NCBI GenBank assembly: GCA_938074535.1
Contig: CALJER010000014.1
Location: 1 to 17,105 of the forward strand
Length of the DNA stretch: 17,105 bases
Direction: 5' to 3'
Origin: an uncultured archaeon
GTDB lineage: Archaea > Hadarchaeota > Hadarchaeia > Hadarchaeales > WYZ-LMO6
Each line of letters starts with the position of its first letter. Within the stretch, counting starts at the first letter, position 1. Below are positions 1-16,706 of this stretch, piece by piece. The notes beneath the pieces were generated by a model. It did not search any database. It saw nothing but the letters and a program-made list of their open reading frames with translations, and was not told the DNA's origin. The position numbers and the translations under genes are program-made.

Positions 1-125
1 GCTTCTTCCCTCCCGGATCGTTTAACCCGGATGTGCCCCCACAATGGATGGTACCGGGAAGCCCGGTCAAACCGGAAAACCAGACATGGCGGGCCCGGTG
101 GGATTCGAACCCACGACCGTCCGGT

Positions 126-137
126 TTCCCTGCACGT
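126..137 (-). other. tRNA intron 3, canonical position 37/38, 12 nt, relaxed bulge-helix-loop
   Basis: CTCT-TA^A-CGTGC-AGGG-AA^A-CCGGA: central helix CTCT/AGGG with one G-U pair and no inner helix. Confidence 0.85.
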
Positions 138-144
138 TAAGAGC

Positions 145-168
145 TTCATCCGGTCCTTCCCGGACCGA
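145..168 (-). other. tRNA intron 2, position 30/31, 24 nt, strict bulge-helix-bulge
   Basis: GAG-CATC-CG^T-CGGTCC(GGGAA)GGACCG-GATG-AA^G-CTC. Excision restores the anticodon stem TCCGG/CCGGA. Confidence 0.88.
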
Positions 169-190
169 CGGATGCTCCACCAGACTGAGC

Positions 191-211
191 TTCCCGGTAG
201 CCTGCGCTACT
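191..211 (-). other. tRNA intron 1, position 9/10, 21 nt, strict bulge-helix-bulge
   Basis: GGG-CCCG-TA^A-GTAGC(GCAG)GCTAC-CGGG-AA^G-CTC: 4-bp central helix CCCG/CGGG, two 3-nt bulges, flanking helices on both sides. Confidence 0.88.
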
Positions 212-247
212 TACGGGCCCGGGCCCGATAAAGCTCCTCCTCCCTCT

Positions 248-260
248 CTTAAAAGCTTTC
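248..260 (-). promoter_or_regulatory. BRE/TATA promoter of the tRNA gene
   Basis: Minus strand reads GAAAGC-TTTTAAG about 28-40 nt upstream of the mature tRNA 5' end, in an otherwise GC-rich context. Confidence 0.65.
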
Positions 261-2127: not shown

Positions 2128-3000
2128 GTGAAGATTTTCATGCTCTACCGGGGCCCCTTCGGGGAGCAGATGGTCAACAACATGGTGCTGAGGGGACTGG
2201 GGCCCCACACCGCGGGAACCTTCGAGCTGAAGCCCGAAATCCTGGAGGAGGAGCATCCCGGGGAGAAGGACCTCTGGAGCAGACTGTGGGAGGAGCCCTC
2301 CAGGTACCTCCCCAAGCGCCTCCCCCCCGTCAAATGTGACCTGCTGCTGGTCCTGGGCCTCCACTCCAAGCTGGGGGACCTCATCCCTCCCCTCGCGGAG
2401 AGGATGGGCGCCAGGAGCGTCCTCTATCCCATCGATGACCGCCAGCACCTTCCTGAGGGAAAAAAGACCATCCAGGAGGAACTGGAGAGGAAAGGGGTGC
2501 ACGTGGAGTTCCCCGAACCCTTCTGCGCTCTGGAAGGGAGCGAGGACCCCCTCATCAGGGAGTTCTCCCTGCACTTCGGAAGGCCGAGGTTCAGGGTGAA
2601 GAGGGAAGGGGGAAGGATAAGGGCGGTGGAGGTGCTGAGGGACACGCCCTGCGGTTCCGCCCACGCGGTGGCGGAGAAGATGGTGGGGGTTTCATGCGAG
2701 GATCCCAAGGCCCTCAAGGAAAAGCTCTTCTTCGAGCACCACAACGAGGAGAACGAAAACTACTGCCTGGCGGAGATGGATCCCCTCGCACCCTACATGC
2801 AGGAAGCCGGCGACCTCCTCGTGGATGCCTTCTTCGAGGCCTGCGGCTTCCCCACCACCAGGGACCTCATCCTGCAGGAGGCCAAGCAGGGGAGGGTGGA
2901 CTTTGAGCGGCTGAAGAGGAAGCTGGTGGAGGAAGAGAAGAGGTGCGAAACGGAAAGGACCATACGCAGAAGCCTCAGGGAGCTGGGGCTGGAGGCCTAA
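2128..3000 (+). CDS. DUF166-like protein with C-terminal HTH-like extension
   Basis: EFPEPFCAL, FGRPRF, VLRDTPCGSAHAVA and YCLAEMD match my recollection of the archaeal DUF166 family. It starts 3 nt after the corrinoid gene stop. Confidence 0.75.
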   Translation: MKIFMLYRGPFGEQMVNNMVLRGLGPHTAGTFELKPEILEEEHPGEKDLWSRLWEEPSRYLPKRLPPVKCDLLLVLGLHSKLGDLIPPLAERMGARSVLYPIDDRQHLPEGKKTIQEELERKGVHVEFPEPFCALEGSEDPLIREFSLHFGRPRFRVKREGGRIRAVEVLRDTPCGSAHAVAEKMVGVSCEDPKALKEKLFFEHHNEENENYCLAEMDPLAPYMQEAGDLLVDAFFEACGFPTTRDLILQEAKQGRVDFERLKRKLVEEEKRCETERTIRRSLRELGLEA

Positions 3001-4592
3001 TCACCAGGAAGGAAGTGCAGCTCGCCCACCAACCTGTACATGAGGTCGCTCTCGCTCTCCAGGTTCAGGTACTCCACCCTCCTCGCCAGCTCCTCCCCTT
3101 CCTCCCTCCTCCTTCTCGAGACCAGGGCCTGCCTGGCCCCCTCCAGGGCCGCGTTCCCCACCTTCTCCACCCTTTCCGGGGGGACGCGTGGGAGGAGGCC
3201 TATCCTGAAGGCCTTCTCCACCCTTATGTAGGTCCCGAAGGCCCCGGCAAGGTAGACCCTCTCCACCTCCTCCTCCTCTATCCCGTACCTCTCCAGCAGC
3301 ACCTTCACCCCAGCCCTTATGGCGGCTTTGGCCAGCTTCAGCTTATCCACATCTTCCTCGTCGATTTTGATCTCCCTCTCCCCCTTGGCTATCGTCACTT
3401 CCTTCCTTCCCCCCGTGAACTTCCCCGTCTCGTCCATGAACCCCCTCTCCAGCATCTCGGCCAGCACATCTATCAGGGCGGAACCGCAGAGGCCCACGGG
3501 GGGCATATCGTCTATGGTCTCGAAGCTCACCCTCCCGCTCCCGTCCATCTCCACCCTGCTCACGGCGCCCGAAACCGCGCCCACCCCGCACTTTATCCCG
3601 CTGCCCTCGAAAGCCGGACCCGAGGCACAGGAGGTGGCGATCATCCTCTCCTCGTTTCCCAGCACGATTTCGGTGTTCGTGCCTATGTCCATCAGCATGC
3701 ACATCTCTTTCTTCCTGTGGAGATCCGTGGCCAGAAGGCCGGCCACGGTGTCCGCCCCCACGAAACCACCTATGAGGGGCAGGGCGTACACGTTTCCTTC
3801 AGGGTTCATGTTGAGCCCCAGTTCCGCTCCTCTTCGGTTCTGGGCCTCCAGGCTGAAGGGTCTGAAGGGAAAGACCCCCAGGGAGCCCACGGGCTGACCC
3901 AGGAAGAGGTCCCTCATGGTGGAGTTTCCCACCACCACCATCTCGTAAACATGCTCCGGTCTCACCCCCAGTTTCCTCACCATCTCGTTGGCGGCCCCCC
4001 TCACCATCCTCTCCAGCTCCCCCTGACCCGCGCTCCTGGCGTGGGTGATCCTGCTTATCACATCTCCTCCGTAGACCTCCTGGGGGTTTTTCATGGAGGA
4101 AACGCCCAGGATCCTCCCCGTCTCGAGGTCCACCCCATAAGCCACCAACGTGGTGGTGCCCACATCCAGGGCCAATCCCAGCAGCTCGCCCTCGTACTCC
4201 CCCATCACCCTCCCCTCACCCCTCCACTCCCACACCACCCTTTCCCCCTCCCTCCTCACCAGCGGCTCTAGCCTCACGGGCACTACCCTTCCCCTCTCCA
4301 GGATTCTGTACCTCCTCCGCGGTACCTCCGCCACCAGCCAGCCGTCCTCCCTCTCCACCCTCGCCTGGCAGGCCAGCCTCTCCCCCGCTCCAGCGAACTT
4401 GAGCTCCGCCTCCGTGGGCGGATTCAGTCCCTCCCCCTCCACCCTCAGGAGGCACTGACCGCACAGGCCCAGTCCCCCGCAAAGGGAGGGAAGGTCTATC
4501 CCCATCTCCCGGCAGTAGGAAAGGAGGTCCCTACCCTTCACCAGCCTGGCCCTCTTTCCGTAGTTCCTGAAGAAGAGTTCCCCCCTCTCCAC
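2997..4592 (-). CDS. Reductive activator of corrinoid proteins (RACo-type ASKHA ATPase with N-terminal [2Fe-2S] domain, DUF4445)
   Basis: CGGLGLCGQC...RLACQ ferredoxin motif; DVGTTT, NPQ..YGGDVISRI, GGFVGAD, DIGTNTEI, GPAFEG, GLCGS, LAGAFG and VGNAAL motifs. Confidence 0.93.
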   Translation of the reverse strand: MERGELFFRNYGKRARLVKGRDLLSYCREMGIDLPSLCGGLGLCGQCLLRVEGEGLNPPTEAELKFAGAGERLACQARVEREDGWLVAEVPRRRYRILERGRVVPVRLEPLVRREGERVVWEWRGEGRVMGEYEGELLGLALDVGTTTLVAYGVDLETGRILGVSSMKNPQEVYGGDVISRITHARSAGQGELERMVRGAANEMVRKLGVRPEHVYEMVVVGNSTMRDLFLGQPVGSLGVFPFRPFSLEAQNRRGAELGLNMNPEGNVYALPLIGGFVGADTVAGLLATDLHRKKEMCMLMDIGTNTEIVLGNEERMIATSCASGPAFEGSGIKCGVGAVSGAVSRVEMDGSGRVSFETIDDMPPVGLCGSALIDVLAEMLERGFMDETGKFTGGRKEVTIAKGEREIKIDEEDVDKLKLAKAAIRAGVKVLLERYGIEEEEVERVYLAGAFGTYIRVEKAFRIGLLPRVPPERVEKVGNAALEGARQALVSRRRREEGEELARRVEYLNLESESDLMYRLVGELHFLPGD

Positions 4593-4649
4593 TACCTTCC
4601 CCCCAGCCCCTTTTCCCTCTTCCCTAATAACCGCTCAGGAAAGGGGGGC

Positions 4650-6044
4650 TCACTTCCAGTTCTCGGCCAGGAACTTGGGAATGCCGGAGGAATCCCTCGG
4701 TCCCACCATCACTTCCCATTCGAACCCGAGCAGCTCCTCCAGCTCCCCCTTGTACCTGGCGGCCATTCCGGGGATGATGATCTTCCTGTGCTTCACCTTA
4801 TCCTTCACGCTGGAGGCCTTGACGGCATCCGCTATGGTCTGTGCCGTCATCTTCCTCCCCGCTATCGAGGATTCCACGCTGAGGCCTCCCGTGTCCACCA
4901 CGACCAGGTAGGAGGGCACCTTGGAGCTCTCTATGTCGCTGACCACCGTGAAGTAGGTGAGGGCGAAGTTGGAGGTGATCATCACAGGAGAGTTCTCGTT
5001 TACGCTCCCTATGGCCCTCATCCCCGCATCCACGCTTACCGGCTTCCTGGGATCGGTGTAGATGTTCTCCCTCAGGATGAGGAGGGGGAGCCAGCTCCAG
5101 ACCTCCTCGGATCTGAGGATGAGGAGATCCGCATATCTGACCATCAGGATGGTGGCCAAGGCCGTCTCCTCCCACGCGAGCTCCTCAGGCTTCCTTCCGC
5201 CATCCTCCCACACCCTCGCCACGGAAGCCACCAGCGGGAAGCCCACCTCTTGGTCCTCACCCCTGATGGCGGTGTTCCTGAGGACGGTGAAGCAGTTCAC
5301 CGTTTCCTTCAGCTCCTCACCGAATCCCGCCCCGGGATCGAGAAGGAGGTCCTGAACCCCCCAGCTCCACAGGGTCTTGGCCATGGACTTCAGGGTCTTG
5401 AGGTCGAAGGGAGAGTAGAGGGCGAGGGGGCACTGGTACTTGAGGGCCAGCTCACCCATTTCCTTCCAGTTATCCCTGGTGGCGGCGTAAAGGAGGGGCC
5501 TTCTATCCCTCACCTGAGAGACTGCCTTTTCCATCACCCCCGGATCGGTGCACCAGAGCACCAGGGGAAGCTTGCTGAGGGAGGCCTTTTTCACGGCGGC
5601 CTCGAACCTGGAGGGATCACCGGAGACGTACCTGGGGGCGAGCATGTCCAGCTTCAGGGTTTTCCCTATGTAAGAGTACCCGTACTCCTCCACCCTCTTG
5701 ATCTTCTTCAGGAGGTCCATCTCAGGCAGGGTATCCTCCAGGGTGAGGGCGAGGGGGGGAGGGTTGAAGTAGCGGTACTCGTGCCTCCTCACCACCAGCT
5801 GTCCGCCCACCCTGATTTCCCCTATCCTCACCTCCCTCACGGGGGGCTTCAGCATCTCCCTGAGCTTCTCCAGGTTGGCCTCCTGTCCCTTCTCGAAGAG
5901 GGGCGGGCACTCCTCAACCGAGATGGTCCTCTCCGCCAGCCTGGCGGCAAAGGCCATGCAGACTCCTGGCTCGCACTTGCCGCAGTTGGTCTTGGGGAGG
6001 AGGGCGTAGAGGTCGAGGGGGCCTATCTTCCTCTTGGCCGCCAC
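4650..6044 (-). CDS. cdhE: Acetyl-CoA decarbonylase/synthase gamma subunit (corrinoid Fe-S protein, large)
   Basis: LPKTNCGKCxxxxCMAFA..CP [4Fe-4S] motif, NIYTDPRKP, NFALTYFTV and VGPRDSSGIP motifs. Confidence 0.97.
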   Translation of the reverse strand: MAAKRKIGPLDLYALLPKTNCGKCEPGVCMAFAARLAERTISVEECPPLFEKGQEANLEKLREMLKPPVREVRIGEIRVGGQLVVRRHEYRYFNPPPLALTLEDTLPEMDLLKKIKRVEEYGYSYIGKTLKLDMLAPRYVSGDPSRFEAAVKKASLSKLPLVLWCTDPGVMEKAVSQVRDRRPLLYAATRDNWKEMGELALKYQCPLALYSPFDLKTLKSMAKTLWSWGVQDLLLDPGAGFGEELKETVNCFTVLRNTAIRGEDQEVGFPLVASVARVWEDGGRKPEELAWEETALATILMVRYADLLILRSEEVWSWLPLLILRENIYTDPRKPVSVDAGMRAIGSVNENSPVMITSNFALTYFTVVSDIESSKVPSYLVVVDTGGLSVESSIAGRKMTAQTIADAVKASSVKDKVKHRKIIIPGMAARYKGELEELLGFEWEVMVGPRDSSGIPKFLAENWK

Positions 6045-7211
6045 TCACTTCACCCCTATCCAGGGCATAAAGGTGGGCTCGCCGCCCTCCCCCATGAGCC
6101 ACTTTATCACGTCCTTCATCGTCCTGATGGCGGCGGGATGCAGGGTGATGTAGAGGTCGTTTCCCGCCATCAGCATGGTGAGGGCCATGGCAGCCTCCCA
6201 CATCGGTCCCCTGTACTCCCTGGCCCCCATCTCAGGGTTGTGCAGCCAGGCCTCCCTGGCCCCCCAGGCGTTGGCCGTGGCCGAACCCATGGGGCACTGG
6301 AGTTCCCCGTCCCCCATCAGTCCCGCCAGCCTGATTCTCTCCATGATGGAGAAGGCATACTCTATCCCATAGCCCAGGGGGGCCGAGGTCGGATCGATCA
6401 CGATTTGCTCCTTGGGGATGTACTCATAGAGCCTGCGGTTGAGCTCCTTGGCCTGCGCTAGGTCTATGGAGGTCCAGGCCAGAACCACGTGACCGTACTG
6501 CTTGGCCGCCCTGGCCACGGGCTCCCACATGTCCAGGTTGGCGGAACTGAGGAGGACCCTCTCGCCCTCGCAGACCTCCGCTATCTTCGGCAGAAGCTTC
6601 GCATCCTTCTCCGGGTTCCCCGAGCCTCCCACGATCAGGGGAACCTCCACCGCCTGCAGGAGGTTCTCCACCAGCTTGCAGGATTCTTCGATGGGGGTAT
6701 CCTTGGAGTAAGGATCGCTGCTGACGAGCTCTATATCTATCAAATCCGCTCCAAACTTCTCCACCGCCAGCTTTGCCCACTTGAGGGGATCCTCCACGGC
6801 ATCCCCCAGCACCGCCCTCACGGGCCCGGGAAGGCGGAGGGGCACGTCAAAAACATCACAGGCGATGGCGGGAGGATTCGGGAACTTCCCTTCCAGGAAG
6901 TGCCAGGGGGGAGCGGTCTCTCCCCCTATCTTCACCACCCTCCTCCTCGTCCCCCCGTCGGCGCTGGTGGCCCCCAGCGTGACTTCGGCTATGGAGCCTG
7001 GATACTCCTGCACGAAGGGGGAGAACTCGGCCTCCAGTAGGGAGGCGGGCTTGGCCGGGGCCAAGGGCTTGGGCGCCTGGGGCGGGAGGAAGGAAAGGAG
7101 GGGTCTGAAGAGGAGCCTCAGCTCCTCCAGGTTCAGATCCACATTTTCCAGCTCCAGCTCCCCGAACTCACCCAGGAGTTCCAGGATCTCCTCCAGCGGA
7201 GACTTTGTCAC
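6045..7211 (-). CDS. cdhD: ACDS delta subunit (corrinoid Fe-S protein, small)
   Basis: EVTLGATSADGGTR, VGGSGNPEKD, DPTSAPLGYGIEY, ERIRLAGLMGD and NAWGAREAW motifs. GTG start overlaps the cdhC stop. Confidence 0.97.
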   Translation of the reverse strand: MTKSPLEEILELLGEFGELELENVDLNLEELRLLFRPLLSFLPPQAPKPLAPAKPASLLEAEFSPFVQEYPGSIAEVTLGATSADGGTRRRVVKIGGETAPPWHFLEGKFPNPPAIACDVFDVPLRLPGPVRAVLGDAVEDPLKWAKLAVEKFGADLIDIELVSSDPYSKDTPIEESCKLVENLLQAVEVPLIVGGSGNPEKDAKLLPKIAEVCEGERVLLSSANLDMWEPVARAAKQYGHVVLAWTSIDLAQAKELNRRLYEYIPKEQIVIDPTSAPLGYGIEYAFSIMERIRLAGLMGDGELQCPMGSATANAWGAREAWLHNPEMGAREYRGPMWEAAMALTMLMAGNDLYITLHPAAIRTMKDVIKWLMGEGGEPTFMPWIGVK

Positions 7212-8674
7212 TTCCCCTCCCCCTTGCCCTTCCTCTCTGCCTTTCTGATGATCATCTTCTCGGCGAAGATCCTCGCGTTTTTCAGGATGATCTCAAATTC
7301 CATCCCTCCCGCTCCCGGCACGCCCACAGTAAGGGTGGGGGCCATCACCGGCACTCCCTCTGCGGGCACCCCCCCGGCGGCCTCCGCTGGGGCCTCGGCA
7401 GCCTTCTCCGCCTCCACTCCCTTCAAGCCCTTCACCCCCAGCTTTTTCAGGTCCTCGCTGGGCTCCACGATGGGGTGGTTGTGCTCTTTGAGGAAGGCCT
7501 TCAGCTCCTCGATGTTCTTCACCTCCTCCTCGGTGGGTATCTTGTCCACCACCTCCTTGGGTATGAAGTCCTTCACCCTCTCCTTGGCCTCCTTGGGAAT
7601 CCAGACCACCCTCTTCCATCCCCCGTCGGCCTGCAGGAACTTGGGGGACCTCATGTACTCGAAGGACAGGCCGTGGAAACCATCCACCTGCCTTCCTCCA
7701 GCCGTGGAATCAGCCATGGTAGAAAAAGACACCCCGTTGACCGCCGGGCCCTTGAAGTCCCTGTGCACTATCCCCAGCCCATCCACCTCGGGAATGTAGA
7801 AGGCTACGGCCTCAAAGCAACCGCAGGAGGTGTGCGGGTACCCGAAAGCCGTGTAGAGCTGCACCCTCTGGACCGCCCCCAGGCTCTTGGCCTTCACGGA
7901 CTCGTTGGCTCCCTCCCATTCACCCTTGAGGGGATCTATGACTTTCCCTATCTTGACCTCGTAGATGGAGCCCTTCGGATCTATCCTGGAGGCGGCCCTT
8001 CCGTCGAACCAGCTTATGGCACCACAGTTGGCGTACCTCTGGGGCGTGATCACGCACACGTGGGTGGGGGCGAAGGACTGGCAGAGGGTGCATCCGTAGA
8101 ACACGTCCACCTCCTCATCCTTGAGGCCCCTGGCCCTGGCATCCCTGGCGTCGTAAACTTTGATCGCCTCGGGATAAAGCCTCTCCACCTCGGCGGGATC
8201 GGTGTAGAAGGTGACCTGGACTTTCTCTATGATGGGACACTCACTGTGGTAGAGCCTGATGATCACCATCCCGAGGTGTTTCAGGGTGAAACCCTTCTGA
8301 ACCGTTTTCTTGCTCACCCTGCACCAGATGGTGTTCCTTTGGTTGAGGTGCATGAAACCCTCCACCCAGTTGGTGAAGTAGTGGAGGCGTCTCTCGAAGA
8401 CCCCTTCCATCTCCTCCTCCAGGTCCTTTCCGCTCACCTCCACCAGCATGGCAAAGGGGGTCTTGCTCCCCTCGGGTATGTCCTTTAACTCAGGGCCCAC
8501 CACCACGACCTTTCCGTCCTCCACCTGGTCGGAGGGCCTCACCCTGAGAAGCTCGAACTTGTGGGGAACATCGGGACCGCCCAGCTCCGCGTGCATGTCC
8601 CCTTTTCTTATCCTCTCTCCCTCGTAAACCACCCCCACGTCCACGGGGATGTCCGCGAACATTCCAGACTTCAT
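7208..8674 (-). CDS. cdhC: Acetyl-CoA synthase, ACDS beta subunit
   Basis: YEGERIRK, EGFMHLNQR, and A-cluster ligand motifs FYGCTLCQSFAPTHVC..CG and PHTSCGCFE; FLQADGGW. Confidence 0.98.
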   Translation of the reverse strand: MKSGMFADIPVDVGVVYEGERIRKGDMHAELGGPDVPHKFELLRVRPSDQVEDGKVVVVGPELKDIPEGSKTPFAMLVEVSGKDLEEEMEGVFERRLHYFTNWVEGFMHLNQRNTIWCRVSKKTVQKGFTLKHLGMVIIRLYHSECPIIEKVQVTFYTDPAEVERLYPEAIKVYDARDARARGLKDEEVDVFYGCTLCQSFAPTHVCVITPQRYANCGAISWFDGRAASRIDPKGSIYEVKIGKVIDPLKGEWEGANESVKAKSLGAVQRVQLYTAFGYPHTSCGCFEAVAFYIPEVDGLGIVHRDFKGPAVNGVSFSTMADSTAGGRQVDGFHGLSFEYMRSPKFLQADGGWKRVVWIPKEAKERVKDFIPKEVVDKIPTEEEVKNIEELKAFLKEHNHPIVEPSEDLKKLGVKGLKGVEAEKAAEAPAEAAGGVPAEGVPVMAPTLTVGVPGAGGMEFEIILKNARIFAEKMIIRKAERKGKGEGK

Positions 8675-9201
8675 CTTTCCAGCTCCTCCGCTATCTTCTC
8701 CAGGTTCTTATACCACTCCTCCTCCGACATGTTGGGAAAGGACCAACTACAATGAGGCTGATAAACTCTATTTAAAGATATCGTCCTGAGGTGGGGGGCG
8801 AAGGACTTCAGACCCGAGCCCATGAGCCACTCCATGTAGTAAGGACCCAGCCCGAGCATCAGCACCAGATCGTGGGGCTGCCCATCCCCATGCAGGCTCC
8901 ACTTGGGATCGGTGAGCCTGGAACATATCTCCACCATGGCCATGCGGGCGGCGGGCTGCACCCCCCTCTTCCTGAGCTCCACGGCCGCATGGGCGGTGGC
9001 CACCAAGGGGACCTTGCCGGCCCTGGCTATCCTAACCACATATTCCAAGGGCGATTTCTCCCCGTTTCCCCCTAGGGAACCCGTACCCACCACGAAAAGG
9101 GGGCGCTTGGCCCTCTTGATGAGGGCCGCCACCACCTCGGGCTTGGTGATGAGCACGGCCTTCACGGGCCCTGGAACCTCCGCCCTCTGCCACGGCTCCA
9201 T
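8671..9201 (-). CDS. cdhB: ACDS epsilon subunit
   Basis: IKRAKRPLFVVG, HDLVLMLG..YY and YQPHCSWSFPN motifs; located between cdhA and cdhC. Confidence 0.93.
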   Translation of the reverse strand: MEPWQRAEVPGPVKAVLITKPEVVAALIKRAKRPLFVVGTGSLGGNGEKSPLEYVVRIARAGKVPLVATAHAAVELRKRGVQPAARMAMVEICSRLTDPKWSLHGDGQPHDLVLMLGLGPYYMEWLMGSGLKSFAPHLRTISLNRVYQPHCSWSFPNMSEEEWYKNLEKIAEELER

Positions 9202-9202
9202 C

Positions 9203-11545
9203 TCATCCCTCCTTTGCCCTTACCAACCTGGGCACCAGGGTGGGATCGGGATTGGGGTTCTCAAATTCCTTCCATCCCTTCTCCTTCAGGAAGGCCATCA
9301 CCTCGTCCTTCATGGTCACGGGGATGTCGGCCGCCGTCCTCACAAAGAGGTGGAGGTCGTCGGGAAGCTCCCCAAAGAGCTTGCGGTGCAGGTCGATGTA
9401 GTGGTTCAGCTTCATGGATCTGCCCCTCGCCGTGTCGTTGGCCCTCATGCACAGCTTGGGGATGGCCACCATGGCCTCCTCCACGGTCTCCGCCATGAAG
9501 AAGAGGTGCTCGGGGACCGGACCCACGTAGACCTCCTTTCCCGTTCTGGCATCTATCACCTTCCAAGCCTCGGGGTCCTCCTTCCTGCCCAGCAGGGCTC
9601 TCCTGTACTTGGACCCGTGGGGCCCCACGATCACGGGAACACCCAGCCTCCAGAACCCGCTGGCTATGGAGGAAGCCTTCTGGGAGTAAGCGCCCCAGGC
9701 CACTCCCACCGCCCCTACCCTGTTGTGGATGTAGTCTGCTATCTCCTCGTAGTTGGACCTCAGCCTGCGCTTCGCGAAGATGTTGGCGATCTTGATGGCG
9801 GCACCGGCGATGTGGGAGTTGGCCACACATGAGCCGCAGTTCACTATCCCCCCGGCGTCGAAGACCCCAGGATAGGTCTCGTAGAGGCTCTGCCCGTTCT
9901 CGTCCCTGTACATCCCTATGGCCATGGCCGAGCATCCCGTGGTGCAGAGGATGTACTTCCTCCTGGCGAACTCCTCGGCTATCCTGGCCACCTCCTTCCA
10001 GCTCCCGGGGAAGTTGGAGCACCCAACTAGGGCCAGCACACCCGGGATCTCCCCCATGACGATGGGCTGGCCCACCCTCCTTATCTCCACGTCCTGGATG
10101 GCTCCCCTGCCCGCCCTCATCTTGAACCTCTCCTCCGCCGTCTCCAGCCGGTGGGCTCCCAAGATGAGGGTGTGGGGCTTTATTCCCACCGGACATATCC
10201 CCTCCTGCTCGCACCTGCCGCATCCCACGCAGGGCTCGTAGAGCTCCGAAAGGGGCTTCAGGTCGCCCTTCCCCGCCTCAGCCAGGGCCTGGGGAATGGG
10301 GAGGGTGTTGGGGCAGGCCCTCACGCACGAGAAGCAGGAGGTGCACCTCCTGGCCTCCTCCATCACCTTTTCCTCCGGTGGAATGAGGCCCATCTTCCTC
10401 CTCCTGGGGGCTATCTGCATCGCCACCCTCACCGCCACCTCTCCCGCCTTCTCCGAGTCCAAAATGGCCACGCCCGGGAGCTTGCCCTCCACCAAATCCT
10501 TCACTATTCCCTCCACGGGATCCCTGGTCCTGTCGGGCAAACCCTGGAAGTTCTTGTAGTGGGTGGTGATGAGGACGGCGTTCACCTTCTGGGCTTCCCT
10601 TAAAATATCCGCCCTTATGCACTGCTCGTCCACCATGATCACGTCTGCCACCCCTGATCTCACGAACCTGAGCTGGAAGGAGATGGGTCCCACGATCTTC
10701 GCCTTCCTGGAGTACCTGGTGAGGTCTATGGCCGTGCAGCAAATCCCGCACACCTCCACCTGGTCCTCCAGGTTCTCCCTGGCGAGGTAGTTGGCCACCC
10801 CGATGGCGGGAGGAACGTTGTGCCCTATCACCAGGATCACGGGCTTGGAGCGGTCTATCACCCCCATTCCCAGCTCCACCAGGTGCGCCTCCGGATCGGC
10901 CTTCGGGAAGCCGTAGGCGGAGATCTGGGCGATGTCCGCCACCTCCATCACCACGTGGTCGATCATGCCTGCGTGGAAGACCTTGGACTCAAAGTCGAGG
11001 TTGTCGCCCTCCTGCCCCGTGTGTGTACAGGAGAGGAGATGCACGAGTTCCGTCTCGCAGTAATCCAGCACGTCCTCCAGGTCGCCCAGCGTCCTGGGCT
11101 TTATCCCTGTGACCAGCCTGATGGTGGGGGCCTCCAGGTACACGTTTTCTCCCCCCACGTCCAGCGGATGGTCCCTCCCGTACTTCTCTATGAGCTCGTC
11201 CAGCATGTGCCTGGCGTGCCCGCAGTGCGTGGAGGCCCCTATGCAGCAGGAGAGGAGGACGATCCTGGAGAGCTGGCCGCCCATGTCTATGCCACATCCG
11301 CCCCTCTTCCCCCTGCTCAGATCACACTTCCCGAAGGTGCAGAGGCAGCAGAGGTCGCAAAAAGGCAGGTAGAAGGGTTTATACCGTCTGAGGAGCTTTT
11401 TGTCCCACTCCCGCAGGGAGGCTATGTCCGGCATGGGGGTGGGACCTTCCTCCTCCTCCCATTCCCTGACCACCCGGCCCAGGTTGAGTTCCAGTCCCTT
11501 GGCCCGAAGCCAGGGGAGCTGGAGCTCATCGGCCTTGATCCTCAT
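9203..11545 (-). CDS. cdhA: Ni-CO dehydrogenase, ACDS alpha subunit
   Basis: CDLCCLCTFGKC (D/B clusters); C-cluster ligands GHN, GICCT, DEQC, VGCSN, TGCS and GSCV; two extra 4Fe-4S motifs CTSCFSCVRACP and CVGCGRCEQ..CP. Confidence 0.98.
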   Translation of the reverse strand: MRIKADELQLPWLRAKGLELNLGRVVREWEEEEGPTPMPDIASLREWDKKLLRRYKPFYLPFCDLCCLCTFGKCDLSRGKRGGCGIDMGGQLSRIVLLSCCIGASTHCGHARHMLDELIEKYGRDHPLDVGGENVYLEAPTIRLVTGIKPRTLGDLEDVLDYCETELVHLLSCTHTGQEGDNLDFESKVFHAGMIDHVVMEVADIAQISAYGFPKADPEAHLVELGMGVIDRSKPVILVIGHNVPPAIGVANYLARENLEDQVEVCGICCTAIDLTRYSRKAKIVGPISFQLRFVRSGVADVIMVDEQCIRADILREAQKVNAVLITTHYKNFQGLPDRTRDPVEGIVKDLVEGKLPGVAILDSEKAGEVAVRVAMQIAPRRRKMGLIPPEEKVMEEARRCTSCFSCVRACPNTLPIPQALAEAGKGDLKPLSELYEPCVGCGRCEQEGICPVGIKPHTLILGAHRLETAEERFKMRAGRGAIQDVEIRRVGQPIVMGEIPGVLALVGCSNFPGSWKEVARIAEEFARRKYILCTTGCSAMAIGMYRDENGQSLYETYPGVFDAGGIVNCGSCVANSHIAGAAIKIANIFAKRRLRSNYEEIADYIHNRVGAVGVAWGAYSQKASSIASGFWRLGVPVIVGPHGSKYRRALLGRKEDPEAWKVIDARTGKEVYVGPVPEHLFFMAETVEEAMVAIPKLCMRANDTARGRSMKLNHYIDLHRKLFGELPDDLHLFVRTAADIPVTMKDEVMAFLKEKGWKEFENPNPDPTLVPRLVRAKEG

Positions 11546-13211: not shown

Positions 13212-13792
13212 GGCTGGCCCTCCTCATTTTGGCGGGGGGAAAGAGCGAGCGGTGGGGGAGGGAGAAGGCCCTGGTGGAGGTGGAGGGCAAGCCCCTGCTC
13301 CTGCATGTGCTCGAGAGGCTGGGTGAACTCTCGGAGGAAAGAGTGGTGTCCTGCAAGCCCGGTGTGGGGCTGAAGCTGGAGGGGGTGAGGGTGGTGGAGG
13401 ACGAATCGGAGGAGAGGGGGGCGGTGATGGGCCTGATCAGCGCCCTTCCCTTTGTGCGCAGCGACTACGTGATGGTGGTGGCCTGCGACCACCCGAGGGC
13501 CAGCCCCCTAGTGATGAGGAGGCTGGCGGAAAGGGCGGAGGGTCACGAGGGCGCGGTCCCCGTCTGGCCCAACGGGTACCTGGAGCCCCTCCACGCCGTC
13601 TACAGGACCCGCAGCCTGCTGAGGGCGGTGAGGGAGGCGGGAAGTGAGAGGAGGCTGAGGAAAATCCTGGAAGGCCTAGACATCGTTTACGTTCCGGTGG
13701 AGGAGGTGAGGGAGCTCGACCCCCAGCTCGATTGCTTTTTCAACCTCAACTCCCCCGAGGACCTTTCCAGGCTCCCTCCGCGGAGAGCCTGA
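13208..13792 (+). CDS. mobA: Molybdenum/tungsten cofactor guanylyltransferase
   Basis: ILAGGKSERWGREKAL, VVACDHP, EPLHAVY and FFNLNSPEDL motifs. ATG 13208 overlaps the cooC TGA. The upstream part of ORF 12761-13792 is spurious. Confidence 0.92.
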   Translation: MRLALLILAGGKSERWGREKALVEVEGKPLLLHVLERLGELSEERVVSCKPGVGLKLEGVRVVEDESEERGAVMGLISALPFVRSDYVMVVACDHPRASPLVMRRLAERAEGHEGAVPVWPNGYLEPLHAVYRTRSLLRAVREAGSERRLRKILEGLDIVYVPVEEVRELDPQLDCFFNLNSPEDLSRLPPRRA

Positions 13793-14879
13793 GGTCCCTG
13801 AGGAAAGCCGTGAGGTGGGAGGGACGGTGGTGGGGCATCACCACCAGCCTTATCCCCTCCGGGAAGTCTGAGCGCGAGACCACCCATCCTTTCTCCTCAA
13901 GCCCTCTCTCCAGCTCGGAGCAGCTGAGGGACTCATGCCTGAAGACCACCACGTTGAGCTCGGGCTCCACCGGCAGTTCCAGACCCTCCACCCCCCTTAT
14001 TCCCCCCGCCAGCTTCCTAGTCAGCTGCACGCACCTCCTAGCCTCCCTCCCGTCCAGGAGCTTCAGGGCTATCCAAGAAGCCGCCACGGAGGCCCCGGGC
14101 CTGGTCCCCAGCAGGGTGTGGGTCCTGCCCCCCAGATAGGGAACCTCCTCCCCCACCCTCTCCAGCCACTCCCCCTCCCTCACGAGAAGGAGGCCGGAGG
14201 GAATGGGAGCCCCACCCATCTTGTGCAGGTCGGCAGTGAGGGAGGAGACCCCTTCCACCCTGAAGTCCCATTCGTAGTCCACGGAAAGGAAGGGCAGCAT
14301 GAAACCTCCTAGGGAGGCATCCACGTGTAGAAAGCAGCCTTTCTCCGCCGCAACCTCCGCCATCTCCTCGACCGGGTCCACCAGGCCCAGGGAGGCGGTG
14401 CCCGCTGTTGCCACCACTGCCGCCGTCTCCCGATCCACCTCTTCCTCTACCTTCCTGGGGTCCGCCCTGTAGTCCTCCCCCACTCCCACGAGCGCCAGCT
14501 TGAGGCCAAGCAGGCGGCAGGCCTTTCTCACGGAGTAGTGGACGGACGCAGGGGCCACCACCTTCCTCCTCCCCGTAACCTCCCTGGCCACCCACAGGGC
14601 CATGAGGTTTCCCTCGGTTCCCCCGGAAGCGACGTAGCCCGCCGCTGCCGGGCAGGAAAAGAGCCTCCCCGCCTCCTCCACCACCTCCTCCTCCAGCTCC
14701 CTCACGCTCGGAAAGACCCTGGGGTCAAGGGCGTTGGTCTCCAGAAACCTGAGGTAGGCCCTCACCACCTCCCTTTTGGGGAGGGTGCACATGGAGGAAA
14801 AGACCCTCCCGGAGCGGTACCCCGGATCCCCCTTCCTTCTCTCCTCCAGGAACCTGAGGTAGTCCTTCCCCCTGCCCAA
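13746..14879 (-). CDS. mfnA: PLP-dependent L-tyrosine/L-aspartate decarboxylase (methanofuran and beta-alanine synthesis)
   Basis: GRVFSSMCT, ETNALDP, SGGTEGN, HYSVRKA, LHVDASLGG, ADLHKMG (PLP lysine), GTRPGA and IRLVVMPH motifs. Confidence 0.9.
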   Translation of the reverse strand: MGRGKDYLRFLEERRKGDPGYRSGRVFSSMCTLPKREVVRAYLRFLETNALDPRVFPSVRELEEEVVEEAGRLFSCPAAAGYVASGGTEGNLMALWVAREVTGRRKVVAPASVHYSVRKACRLLGLKLALVGVGEDYRADPRKVEEEVDRETAAVVATAGTASLGLVDPVEEMAEVAAEKGCFLHVDASLGGFMLPFLSVDYEWDFRVEGVSSLTADLHKMGGAPIPSGLLLVREGEWLERVGEEVPYLGGRTHTLLGTRPGASVAASWIALKLLDGREARRCVQLTRKLAGGIRGVEGLELPVEPELNVVVFRHESLSCSELERGLEEKGWVVSRSDFPEGIRLVVMPHHRPSHLTAFLRDLRLSAEGAWKGPRGS

Positions 14880-14880
14880 C

Positions 14881-15744
14881 CTATCCCCCCACCAAGTGAT
14901 CCAGGATCAGGCCTGCCACGTTCTCCTTTCTCACGGACTGCAGTCCCCTCCACCCAGGGATGGCGTTCACCTCCACCACGTACTTCTCGCCCCCTTCCCC
15001 CCTCAGGAGGTCCACCCCCGCGTACTCGCACCCCGTCACCCTGGCCGCCTTCAGGGCCATCTCCCTGCTCTCCTCGTCCGGCTCCCAGGGCTCGGGGGAA
15101 GCACCCGCCGAAACGTTCGTTTTCCACCCGCTGCCCACCCGCCTCATGCCCAGCGCCTCCTCCCCCACCACGAGGATTCGGAGGTCCCAGTTGCCGTGGG
15201 GAATGAACTTCTGCACGTAGTACACGGACCTTCCATACTCCAGCACGGAGAAGAGACGGTAGGCCAGGTCACCCTCCTTCACCCTCAGCGCGCCCGCCCC
15301 CAGGGAACCGAACAGGGGCTTCACCACCACTTCCCCGTAGCGCTCGAAGGCCTTCCTCGCCTCCGCCCTCTTCTCCGTCACCACGGTGGGAGGAACGGGC
15401 AGGCCGGCGTCCTCCAGCAGGGAGTTGGTGTAGAACTTGTCCGCACACCTCTCTATGGAGGAGGGAGGGTTCACCACCCTCACCCCCAGGTTCTCCAGGC
15501 GATGGAGCACGTCCATCCGGAAGACCAGCTGCTCCGCCGATCCCTTGGGCACCCACCTCACCAACAGGAGGTCAAACTCCTCCAGGTCCCTGCCGCCACA
15601 TGTTACCCTGGGCCTCTCCCCGAGCCTCGCCACCACCTCCTGCAGGGGGAACTCGAAGCACTCCCAGCCCCTCCTCACCGCCTCCTCCCTCAGCCTGTCC
15701 ACGTTCCAGTCAGGCTTTCCTGAGGTGAAGATGCCCAGCCTCAC
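14881..15744 (-). CDS. RimK-family ATP-grasp alpha-L-glutamate ligase, probably H4MPT:glutamate ligase (MptN-like)
   Basis: GSAEQLVFRMDVLHRL, DKFYT, VVKPLFGSLG, WKTNVSAGA, YAGVDLL and EVNAIPGW motifs; directly downstream of mch. Confidence 0.88.
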   Translation of the reverse strand: MRLGIFTSGKPDWNVDRLREEAVRRGWECFEFPLQEVVARLGERPRVTCGGRDLEEFDLLLVRWVPKGSAEQLVFRMDVLHRLENLGVRVVNPPSSIERCADKFYTNSLLEDAGLPVPPTVVTEKRAEARKAFERYGEVVVKPLFGSLGAGALRVKEGDLAYRLFSVLEYGRSVYYVQKFIPHGNWDLRILVVGEEALGMRRVGSGWKTNVSAGASPEPWEPDEESREMALKAARVTGCEYAGVDLLRGEGGEKYVVEVNAIPGWRGLQSVRKENVAGLILDHLVGG

Positions 15745-15767
15745 GCCAAGCCCCCCGGAAACCGGGG

Positions 15768-16706
15768 TCAGGGTCTGAGCCCCAGCGACCTCTCAAGTAC
15801 TTCCTCGTTGATTCCCCCCGCGCGGAACACCCTTCCCGTCCTCAGGTTGTTCACGGTGATCTCCGCCGGTGAGAAGAGCTTGGGGTCTATCTTGAAGAAG
15901 TCCCTCTGATAGCGCTCGAAGAGCTCCAGGAAGGGAGAGCCGTAGTCCCTAGAAGAGCTGGAGGGCACCTCCGCGATCACCCTCTCCACCTCCGCGTCCT
16001 CGGCCTCCACGAAGTACACCGTCCTCCCCCCGTAGAGCACGCAGTCGTTGGTCTTTCCCATGGCCTCCAGATCGTTCTTGGCCACGGGGGCGATGGGGGC
16101 CCTTCCCGCCCCGCTGACGATTTTCTGGATGGGAAAGCCCACTTCGTGGAGCTTGTGCACGCCCGTTTCCACCACCCTGGCGGAGATCTGGACGCTGCCC
16201 ACGATGCTGGCGGTGGGGGCCACCACGAGGGTGAGGTTCTCGGGCTTCACCCCGCATTTTCCCGCCACGAACTCCGCCACCTTCTCGTCCGGGAGCTTCC
16301 TGGTCTCAAGGGTGAGCACCGCCACCTCGCTCCTATCCCGGTACCCAAGCTCCCCGAAGAGCTTCTCCACCGCGGCCAGGGCCCTTCCCGGACCTGAGCC
16401 CATGGCGAAGTACTTTTCCACCTTCACCGCCCATCCCGCGTACTGGGAAGCCATGCACGAGAGGAGGGGATGGTCCGTCCTCACGAAAACCCAGGGGAAC
16501 CTCTCCACCCTCACCTCCACCTCCCCCAGCCCACCCATGCATATCTTCGAGAAGGCGATCCCGGCCTCCAGGCTTCCCGGCACCTCCACACCCGCATCGA
16601 TCACCGTGGTCCCGTTCTCCAGCTTTCTGACCCTTATCCTGAGCTCCTCCTCCCTGGCCACCATCTCCTCCACTATCCTCTGCGCCCTCTGATTCACGCT
16701 CAGCAT
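15768..16706 (-). CDS. mch: Methenyl-tetrahydromethanopterin cyclohydrolase
   Basis: MLSVN, ICMGGL, SQYAGW, MGSGPGRAL, APTASIVGSVQISARVVETG, MGKTNDCVLYGG and FFKIDPKLFSPA motifs. Confidence 0.98.
   Translation of the reverse strand: MLSVNQRAQRIVEEMVAREEELRIRVRKLENGTTVIDAGVEVPGSLEAGIAFSKICMGGLGEVEVRVERFPWVFVRTDHPLLSCMASQYAGWAVKVEKYFAMGSGPGRALAAVEKLFGELGYRDRSEVAVLTLETRKLPDEKVAEFVAGKCGVKPENLTLVVAPTASIVGSVQISARVVETGVHKLHEVGFPIQKIVSGAGRAPIAPVAKNDLEAMGKTNDCVLYGGRTVYFVEAEDAEVERVIAEVPSSSSRDYGSPFLELFERYQRDFFKIDPKLFSPAEITVNNLRTGRVFRAGGINEEVLERSLGLRP

Follow-up and report, generated by a model that had tools for sequence, protein, structure and literature searches.

A conserved tRNA-Lys(CUU) gene with three introns in a Hadarchaeales archaeon, and a leader copy of its acceptor strand that may act as a splicing decoy

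The window analysed here, a stretch of DNA taken at its full length of 17,105 nucleotides, carries genes for CdhA-E, an AcsV-like protein, Mch, MptN and MfnA. The complete archaeal acetyl-CoA decarbonylase/synthase cluster, with cdhA, B, C, D and E together with the AcsV-like corrinoid activase, occupies positions 2997-11545 of the minus strand, and mfnA, mptN and mch come after it at 13746-16706, in keeping with the Wood-Ljungdahl/H4MPT context that an earlier note on this DNA had proposed. The best relatives of Mch, at 92-87% identity, belong to MAGs titled Candidatus Hadarchaeales, Hadarchaeota or Hadesarchaea, and the taxonomic placement, for which that note had asked, identifies the host as a Hadarchaeales MAG, neither a methanogen nor an Archaeoglobus; NCBI taxonomy puts Hadarchaeales in the kingdom Methanobacteriati. 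The assembly comprises 1.206 Mb in 53 contigs at 63.3% G+C and is 93.6% complete.

Near the beginning of the window, 134 nt of the minus strand (220..87) make up the precursor gene of a tRNA-Lys(CUU), which closes with an encoded CCA at 89-87. Indexed from its 5' end, where index 1 corresponds to window position 220, the gene consists of exons at 1-9, 31-52, 77-83 and 96-134, summing to 77 nt, and of introns at 10-30 (21 nt), 53-76 (24 nt) and 84-95 (12 nt), such that 57 of its 134 nt are intronic. In window coordinates, the features of the locus and its flanks are the following:

247..254, minus strand: TATA-like box TTTTAAGA, about 25 nt upstream of the leader copy, a candidate promoter (sequence reading)
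221..226, minus strand: leader copy GGGCCC of the acceptor 5' strand (nt 1-6), adjoining nt 1 (comparison of Lys genes and folding)
212..220, minus strand: exon 1, tRNA positions 1-9 (spliced product read by ARAGORN)
191..211, minus strand: intron 1, 21 nt, position 9/10, strict hBHBh' (motif pairing counts)
169..190, minus strand: exon 2, tRNA positions 10-30 (spliced product read by ARAGORN)
145..168, minus strand: intron 2, 24 nt, position 30/31, strict hBHBh' (motif pairing counts)
138..144, minus strand: exon 3, tRNA positions 31-37, with the anticodon CUU inside (spliced product and motif pairing)
126..137, minus strand: intron 3, 12 nt, canonical position 37/38, bulge-helix-loop (motif pairing counts)
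87..125, minus strand: exon 4, tRNA positions 38-76, with the anticodon stem 3' strand, variable loop, T arm, acceptor 3' strand, discriminator G and CCA (spliced product)
76..79, minus strand: T run in the trailer, a possible terminator (sequence reading)

A T/A-rich box similar to TTTTAAGA is found at an equal distance in four orthologues of the same family. Joined by script, the four exons yield a 77-nt tRNA-Lys(ctt) that ARAGORN reads with all four stems fully paired, thus restoring the cloverleaf with a sensible anticodon, and whose 3' end runs through the T arm GTGGG TTCGAAT CCCAC, the acceptor strand CGGGCCC, a discriminator G and the encoded CCA. In the unspliced gene the acceptor 5' strand GGGCCCG lies 124 nt upstream of this matching 3' strand. 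The three introns and their share of the precursor are those that the earlier note had assigned to a tRNA-Lys(CUU), and its claim of a bulge-helix-bulge (BHB) or bulge-helix-loop motif at each of them is borne out as well, in the form of strict hBHBh' motifs at introns 1 and 2 and a bulge-helix-loop at intron 3.

Motifs were assigned by the standard BHB geometry, in which 4 bp of central helix separate two bulges of 3 nt, one on either strand, and the cut follows the second nucleotide of a bulge. Introns 1 and 2 each present two 3-nt bulges 4 bp apart with outer helices flanking them, in a strict helix-bulge-helix-bulge-helix arrangement. At intron 1, the outer helix pairs G1-G3 (nt 1-3) with C11-U12-C13 and the central helix pairs C4-G7 (nt 4-7) with intron CGGG, the bulges being UAA and AAG and the inner hairpin 5 bp long; at intron 2, the outer helix joins about nt 21/22-24 with 32-35/34 and the central helix C25-A26-U27-C28 with intron GAUG, with bulges CGU and AAG and an inner hairpin of 6 bp. 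By complementarity the outer helices of both introns are wholly exonic (GGG/CUC and GAG/CUC, respectively), and the supply of outer helices by such complementary exon stretches may be why positions 9/10 and 30/31 are used. A register for intron 2 shifted by 1 nt also allows a BHB to be drawn, but leaves the anticodon stem unpaired and was rejected. Intron 3 acquires its motif once intron 2 has been removed: the outer helix is then the full anticodon stem and the central helix pairs C32-U33-C34-U35 with intron AGGG, while the 3' bulge is AAA, an inner helix is lacking and the 5' site falls in an 8-nt loop, which makes the motif a bulge-helix-loop. Because it requires nt 32-35 as well as the complete anticodon stem, it can form only after loss of intron 2; the motif of intron 2 itself uses nt 32-34, so that the two are mutually exclusive. 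Judged by this overlap, intron 2 would have to be removed before intron 3, the ordered removal of such introns being described in general terms in passages of PMC8450103.

The same dependence shows in the search procedure, where a one-pass solver missed the triple-intron solution because the outer helix of intron 3 is complete only after removal of intron 2, and stepwise removal of BHB-bounded segments recovered it. The stepwise procedure generated 16 candidate products, exactly one of which was a full-length tRNA, namely Lys(ctt); when the interior was shuffled 100 times with neighbours preserved, the same procedure yielded some full-length tRNA in 1 case. Introns 1 and 2 have motifs that are compatible with one another, and enforcing both on the leaderless precursor gives -52.9 kcal/mol as compared with a minimum of -60.3 kcal/mol (7.4 above it, at 37 °C). 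The motif conformers differ from the computed minimum-energy fold of the leaderless precursor, and this counts against the best explanation of the locus.

A DNA search of 40 relatives retrieved the full precursor in G003 (97%), G002 (93%), G001 (86%) and, from a second genus, G005 (90%). All four keep the three introns with strict motifs at introns 1 and 2, which with the host makes 5/5 family genomes in two genera. Three compensatory double changes were counted among seven orthologues: two lie in the inner helix of intron 1, where U-A has become C-G in G001 and C-G has become G-C in G023, and one in the central helix of intron 2, where the pair of exon A26 with intron U is replaced by G26 with C in G017. 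The 4-bp helix of intron 3 retains 4/4 pairs in 6/7 orthologues and only 3/4 in G005. Pairs were counted by script in each sequence separately, a MAFFT alignment of the seven orthologues having been set aside for its misplacement of short exons.

It could be argued that we are dealing with a tRNA pseudogene in decay, disrupted by insertions, and that AAG is read by tRNA-Lys(UUU) alone, the gene for which is present at C8:66150-66226. The behaviour of annotation tools would fit such a reading: ARAGORN called nothing in the unspliced window and, when run with its intron option, mis-called the locus as a tRNA-His with a 219-nt intron, and Rfam gave no report at its gathering threshold, its tRNA model stopping at 24.8 bits in the whole-genome search, where the cut-off is 29 bits. 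Decay is nevertheless hard to reconcile with the restoration of every stem upon removal of the three inserts, or with inserts whose placement fits bulge-helix-bulge geometry exactly and which five genomes of two genera have kept, compensatory changes included. Codon use speaks against it as well: the nine ORFs counted in the window contain 180 AAG and 26 AAA codons, which makes AAG about 87% of Lys codons, and no other tRNA-Lys(CUU), such as the intact one that the earlier note had reckoned with, is among the 43 tRNA genes found in the 93.6%-complete assembly. As the sole tRNA-Lys(CUU) found in a genome that prefers AAG, the gene is needed. We regard the pseudogene reading as very improbable and are highly confident that the locus is a genuine tRNA-Lys(CUU) gene with three introns, at 9/10, 30/31 and 37/38. 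The expectation that standard annotation would miss or mis-call it thus holds for ARAGORN and Rfam only, since tRNAscan-SE 2.0 is designed for iterative removal of such introns (passages of PMC8450103); annotation by the former two alone would leave the genome without a tRNA for its main lysine codon.

On the side of the splicing enzymes, the genome holds one RtcB gene (590.8 bits) and a single EndA ORF of 178 aa with N and C domains (G000 C39, L101:1474-2010, minus strand). No second EndA subunit gene was found, the 93.6%-complete assembly yielding one match per domain at E <= 1, both in this same ORF. The encoded protein aligns collinearly with 1a79, the homotetramer of M. jannaschii; its nearest solved relative is the M. 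kandleri enzyme, and the residues of the motifs Y-x-R-G, H-S and S-V-R-K (Tyr/His/Lys) are identical to those of 1a79 in the alignment; we take the Tyr, His and Lys of these motifs to be the catalytic triad. Residues 117-178 align ungapped to M. jannaschii 110-171 and no loop insertion is seen, and by gene size, domains and alignment the enzyme appears alpha4-like, that is, of the homotetrameric type. Passages of Kaneta et al. 2018 (PMC5829648) ascribe broad EndA specificity to the L3 loop, taken here as an additional loop of the C-terminal region that strict-specificity alpha4 enzymes lack; alignment to M. jannaschii did not reveal a recognisable loop of this kind in the EndA studied here.

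The properties of the enzyme bear on intron 3 in particular, for one may suppose that only two of the introns are true and that the third stretch, at window positions 137-126, is cut out in a different register (36/37 or 38/39) or dealt with by another route. Its motif is a relaxed bulge-helix-loop facing an alpha4-like enzyme, and bulge-helix-loop and relaxed motifs are, according to passages of PMC5829648, not classic alpha4 EndA substrates; moreover, the borders of the intron shift by 1-2 nt within the A run, which gives three registers. The mature product, however, is unchanged and identical in all registers, and only 37/38 provides a 4-bp central helix beside the full anticodon stem together with a 3-nt 3' bulge, as it does in 6/7 orthologues. 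We therefore keep 37/38 as the position of intron 3 and consider its splicing in another register or by another route unlikely.

To follow the introns across the order, we ran a pattern search over 65 genomes, which matched in 27 with a pattern that demanded an insert after the anticodon; the presence of a 37/38 insert in 27/27 results from this requirement, and the 38/65 genomes without a match are not evidence of gene absence, since genes without the canonical intron are undetectable by the pattern. Among the 27 Lys genes, the combination 9/10, 30/31 and 37/38 occurs in five genomes of family f1; 9/10 with 37/38 in G023 (f4) and in three genomes of the f2 genus g3; 30/31 with 37/38 in G017 (f4); a D-arm insert with 37/38, judged by eye, in twelve f2 genomes; and 37/38 alone in five genomes. 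Where a 9/10 or 30/31 intron is present, in 10 genes, the automatic solver gave clean results; its output for the D-arm group was doubtful or absent (no solution in 3/27 and artefactual three-step paths in g10), and that group was sorted by eye because of it. From this distribution, the three-intron form is confined to one family among the genes found, and the 9/10 and 30/31 introns also occur singly, and patchily, outside f1. With 9/10, 30/31 and D-arm introns each present in some of the 27, tRNA-Lys(CUU) is a single, compact case in which to study how the order has gained and lost tRNA introns. The D-arm insert of the twelve f2 genomes (L007, L010, L012, L105, L109-L122) is 16-21 nt long, sits at about 21/22-22/23 and ends in GCC(A/G)AAA; it replaces the 9/10 or 30/31 introns, and its splice motif is relaxed.

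Immediately upstream of nt 1, the leader repeats the acceptor 5' strand, and comparable copies were recorded at further Lys and Asn loci (window 221-226, minus strand; G000 C26:4965-4971; L103-L175). In the 27 Lys genes a leader copy (GGGCCC, GGGCCCG or GGCCCG+A) accompanies 9/9 genes with a 9/10 intron and 0/18 without, and in 47 Asn genes from 65 genomes it accompanies 20/20 with an 8/9 intron and 2/27 without (G009 and G012), counts that overstate independence, since the genomes compared are related. The tRNA-Asn of the host itself has an 8/9 intron and carries its leader GCCGGGG (G000 C26:4965-4971) 3 nt upstream. Across four families the Asn copy is exact in 16/20 genes and a near copy in the other 4/20, and the near copies GCTGGGG and GCTGGGA retain pairing at the C-to-T change via G-U. 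The leader copy and the intron are also associated when genes of one genus are compared, for Lys within g3 and g5 and for Asn within g9, g10 and g7. Within the host genome, a copy is present within 20 nt of 2/2 genes with 8/9 or 9/10 introns and of 1/41 others, the exception being an Ala gene without introns, which has a copy of 6 nt at a distance of 10 nt upstream. The upstream GGGCCC was also considered as the true 5' end of the tRNA or as part of a fourth intron and rejected as such, as no U8/A9 would follow it.

When the leader is included, it is paired to the 3' acceptor strand in the minimum-energy fold and the intron takes up nt 4-7, in Lys and Asn alike. For Lys at 37 °C, the conformer with the decoy and both motifs is computed at -51.2 kcal/mol, that with the true acceptor stem at -46.2 and that with the motifs but no decoy at -37.1 kcal/mol. 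Based on these predicted folds we lean towards a role of the leader copy as a decoy for the 3' acceptor strand, which would free the real 5' strand for the motif of intron 1. With a similar degree of conviction, we suggest that 8/9 and 9/10 introns in Hadarchaeales depend on a copy of the 5' acceptor strand in the transcribed leader, intron gain and loss being tied to gain and loss of the decoy. If functional, the leader copy would explain how cleavage is possible at an intron whose motif has to borrow the acceptor strand.

The leader copy may instead have no part in splicing and be the scar of a 5'-proximal intron insertion or of an integrating element, travelling along with an intron some 10 nt away. 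The copy and the intron are tightly linked, and at this distance they would be inherited together; furthermore, the Asn genes of G009 and G012 retain the copy without the 8/9 intron, just as a leftover would be retained. A scar would have to account, on the other hand, for a copy that matches the acceptor of each tRNA in turn (GGGCCC in Lys, GCCGGGG in Asn), for its exact preservation in most of the Asn genes with the intron, over four families, with G-U pairing kept in the near copies, for the contrasts within genera, and for a fold switch predicted in two unrelated tRNAs; nor does any single simple insertion turn an intron-less allele into one with both leader copy and intron. Given the relatedness of the genomes and the close linkage, the insertion scar stays a rival, which we hold to be possible though the less probable of the two explanations, and it is the decoy that we carry forward.

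From the structure of the gene, its motifs, their conservation and the enzyme genes present, we propose a functional single-copy tRNA-Lys(CUU) gene with protein-spliced introns, a scheme in which the splicing order, the decoy and the transcription start are the conjectural elements. A search for sequencing runs that contain this DNA listed a single DNA run, which may be its source, and no RNA run. Transcription would probably start at or near the 6-nt leader, and the precursor would initially not be folded as a cloverleaf: the leader GGGCCC would most likely pair with the 3' acceptor strand and leave the real 5' strand free, so that a BHB could form at intron 1 from one helix between the intron's 3' end and acceptor nt 4-7 and another between nt 1-3 and nt 11-13. 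In the same way, intron 2 would offer its 3' end to nt 25-28, and nt 32-34 would be taken up by nt 22-24. Cleavage in each of the bulges would then fall to the single alpha4-like EndA and ligation of the exons to RtcB, with the bulge-helix-loop of intron 3 probably forming after excision of intron 2; RNase P would afterwards take off the leader.

Archaeal tRNA genes with up to three introns are known mostly from Thermoproteales, as stated in passages of PMC4033280 and PMC8450103, which refer to the multi-intron tRNA genes of Pyrobaculum and Thermofilum described by Sugahara et al. 2007, 2008. Like the gene described here, these are missed by standard finders, according to the same passages. 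In contrast to them, the present host belongs to Hadarchaeota (kingdom Methanobacteriati) and not to Thermoproteota, and it has one alpha4-like EndA gene where theirs is the heterotetramer with the crenarchaeal loop. Closer to the host, Kaneta et al. 2018 (PMC5829648) analysed the Hadesarchaea archaeon YNP_N21 with tRNAscan-SE 2 and SPLITS and, in the passages available, report marked tRNA gene disruption. That genome resembles the host in its lineage, in its alpha4-type EndA and in a raised share of non-canonical and multiple introns, as far as these passages go; the same text passages contain neither gene-level detail nor a three-intron tRNA-Lys(CUU) or leader element. Between them, the Thermoproteales reviews and Kaneta et al. 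2018 put both this kind of gene and its raised frequency in the lineage already in print, and the novelty that the earlier note had seen in the gene is weakened by the placement of its host in Hadarchaeales, the lineage for which passages of the latter paper describe disruption. What the tRNA-Lys(CUU) gene does offer is a clear case of three conserved introns in a lineage on the euryarchaeal side whose endonuclease is alpha4-like, a combination that supports the published view of intron load as independent of the enzyme's subunit type.

Further parallels are found in Asgard archaea and in split tRNAs. Atabeyarchaeia and Freyarchaeia have, in passages of PMC11291895, introns in 92-95% of tRNA genes and several introns in over half, and share with the host the non-canonical positions and the multiple introns per gene; they differ in extent, the host having introns in 14/43 tRNA genes and several in 3/43. 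In the split and permuted tRNAs of Nanoarchaeum equitans and Cyanidioschyzon merolae, complementary leader and trailer flanks pair and form the BHB itself (passages of PMC4090602). There, as would be the case here, sequence outside the mature tRNA builds the EndA substrate; the leader of the host differs in being a direct copy of the acceptor 5' strand, which would pair with the 3' acceptor strand and thereby free the real strand for a cis intron. No description of a leader acceptor copy was found in the literature searched, the original Thermoproteales papers lying outside its scope, and the leader decoy may be the sole aspect of the locus that is new.

For the genome as a whole, a census that combined ARAGORN, Rfam, our own T-arm/acceptor scan and hand curation counts 43 tRNA genes with 18 introns in 14 of them, or 0.42 per gene, and 9/18 introns are non-canonical. 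A single canonical intron is found in six genes (Thr-GGU, iMet, Arg-UCG, Pro-CGG, Tyr and Trp), a single non-canonical one in five (Asp, Glu-CUC, Gln-UUG, Gln-CUG and Ser-GCU) and several introns in three, namely Lys-CUU with 3, Asn with 2 and Met with 2. The extensive intron gain that the earlier note had ascribed to the lineage can be upheld only in part, as a raised intron load with half of the introns non-canonical; the density, at the same time, is well below the 0.84 per gene given for Thermoproteales in passages of PMC8450103. The genome holds a bulge-helix-loop and several motifs without an outer helix in other tRNAs, and yet its sole EndA resembles the strict-specificity enzyme of M. 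jannaschii. Neither the census methods nor a relaxed search of 17 new spans brought up genes for tRNA-Phe(GAA), Gly(UCC) and Gly(CCC) or a third CAU gene; these may lie in the absent 6% of the genome or be disrupted, whether by T-arm introns or as split or permuted genes.

Several of the other interrupted genes deserve mention. The elongator tRNA-Met(CAU) at G000 C26:7630-7742 (L177) has introns at 30/31 (21 nt) and 37/38 (14 nt), the 30/31 motif drawing on exon segments equivalent to those used in tRNA-Lys(CUU); it was missed by the genome-wide Rfam search and scored 48.4 bits when scanned alone. The tRNA-Asn(GUU) at G000 C26:4975-5128 (L176), with orthologues in L013 and L019, carries an intron of about 59 nt at the canonical site, with a conserved core (GGATGAAGA..CGA..CC ... 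GA.GAC) of kink-turn or box C/D-like look; an Rfam scan of the Asn, Met and Trp loci returned no small-RNA family in the long introns. A BLAST search of the genome for a second copy of the Lys introns gave none, introns 1 and 2 matching only themselves below E = 0.1, so that nothing points to transposition of the Lys introns. They differ in this respect from the transposed intron families of Thermoproteales type (Fujishima et al. 2010), being without near-identical copies, whereas introns of tRNA-Asp and tRNA-Glu may qualify: the 28-nt D-loop intron of tRNA-Asp (C17:61119-61224) and the 28-nt intron of tRNA-Glu CUC (C16:3610-3715), which lies at 34/35, inside the anticodon, are identical at 22/28 positions. 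The 17-nt intron of tRNA-Gln UUG (C41:10333-10425) has the core GCGAGGAG in common with the Asp and Glu introns, and the three, judged by sequence resemblance, may represent one intron family at different positions in different tRNAs.
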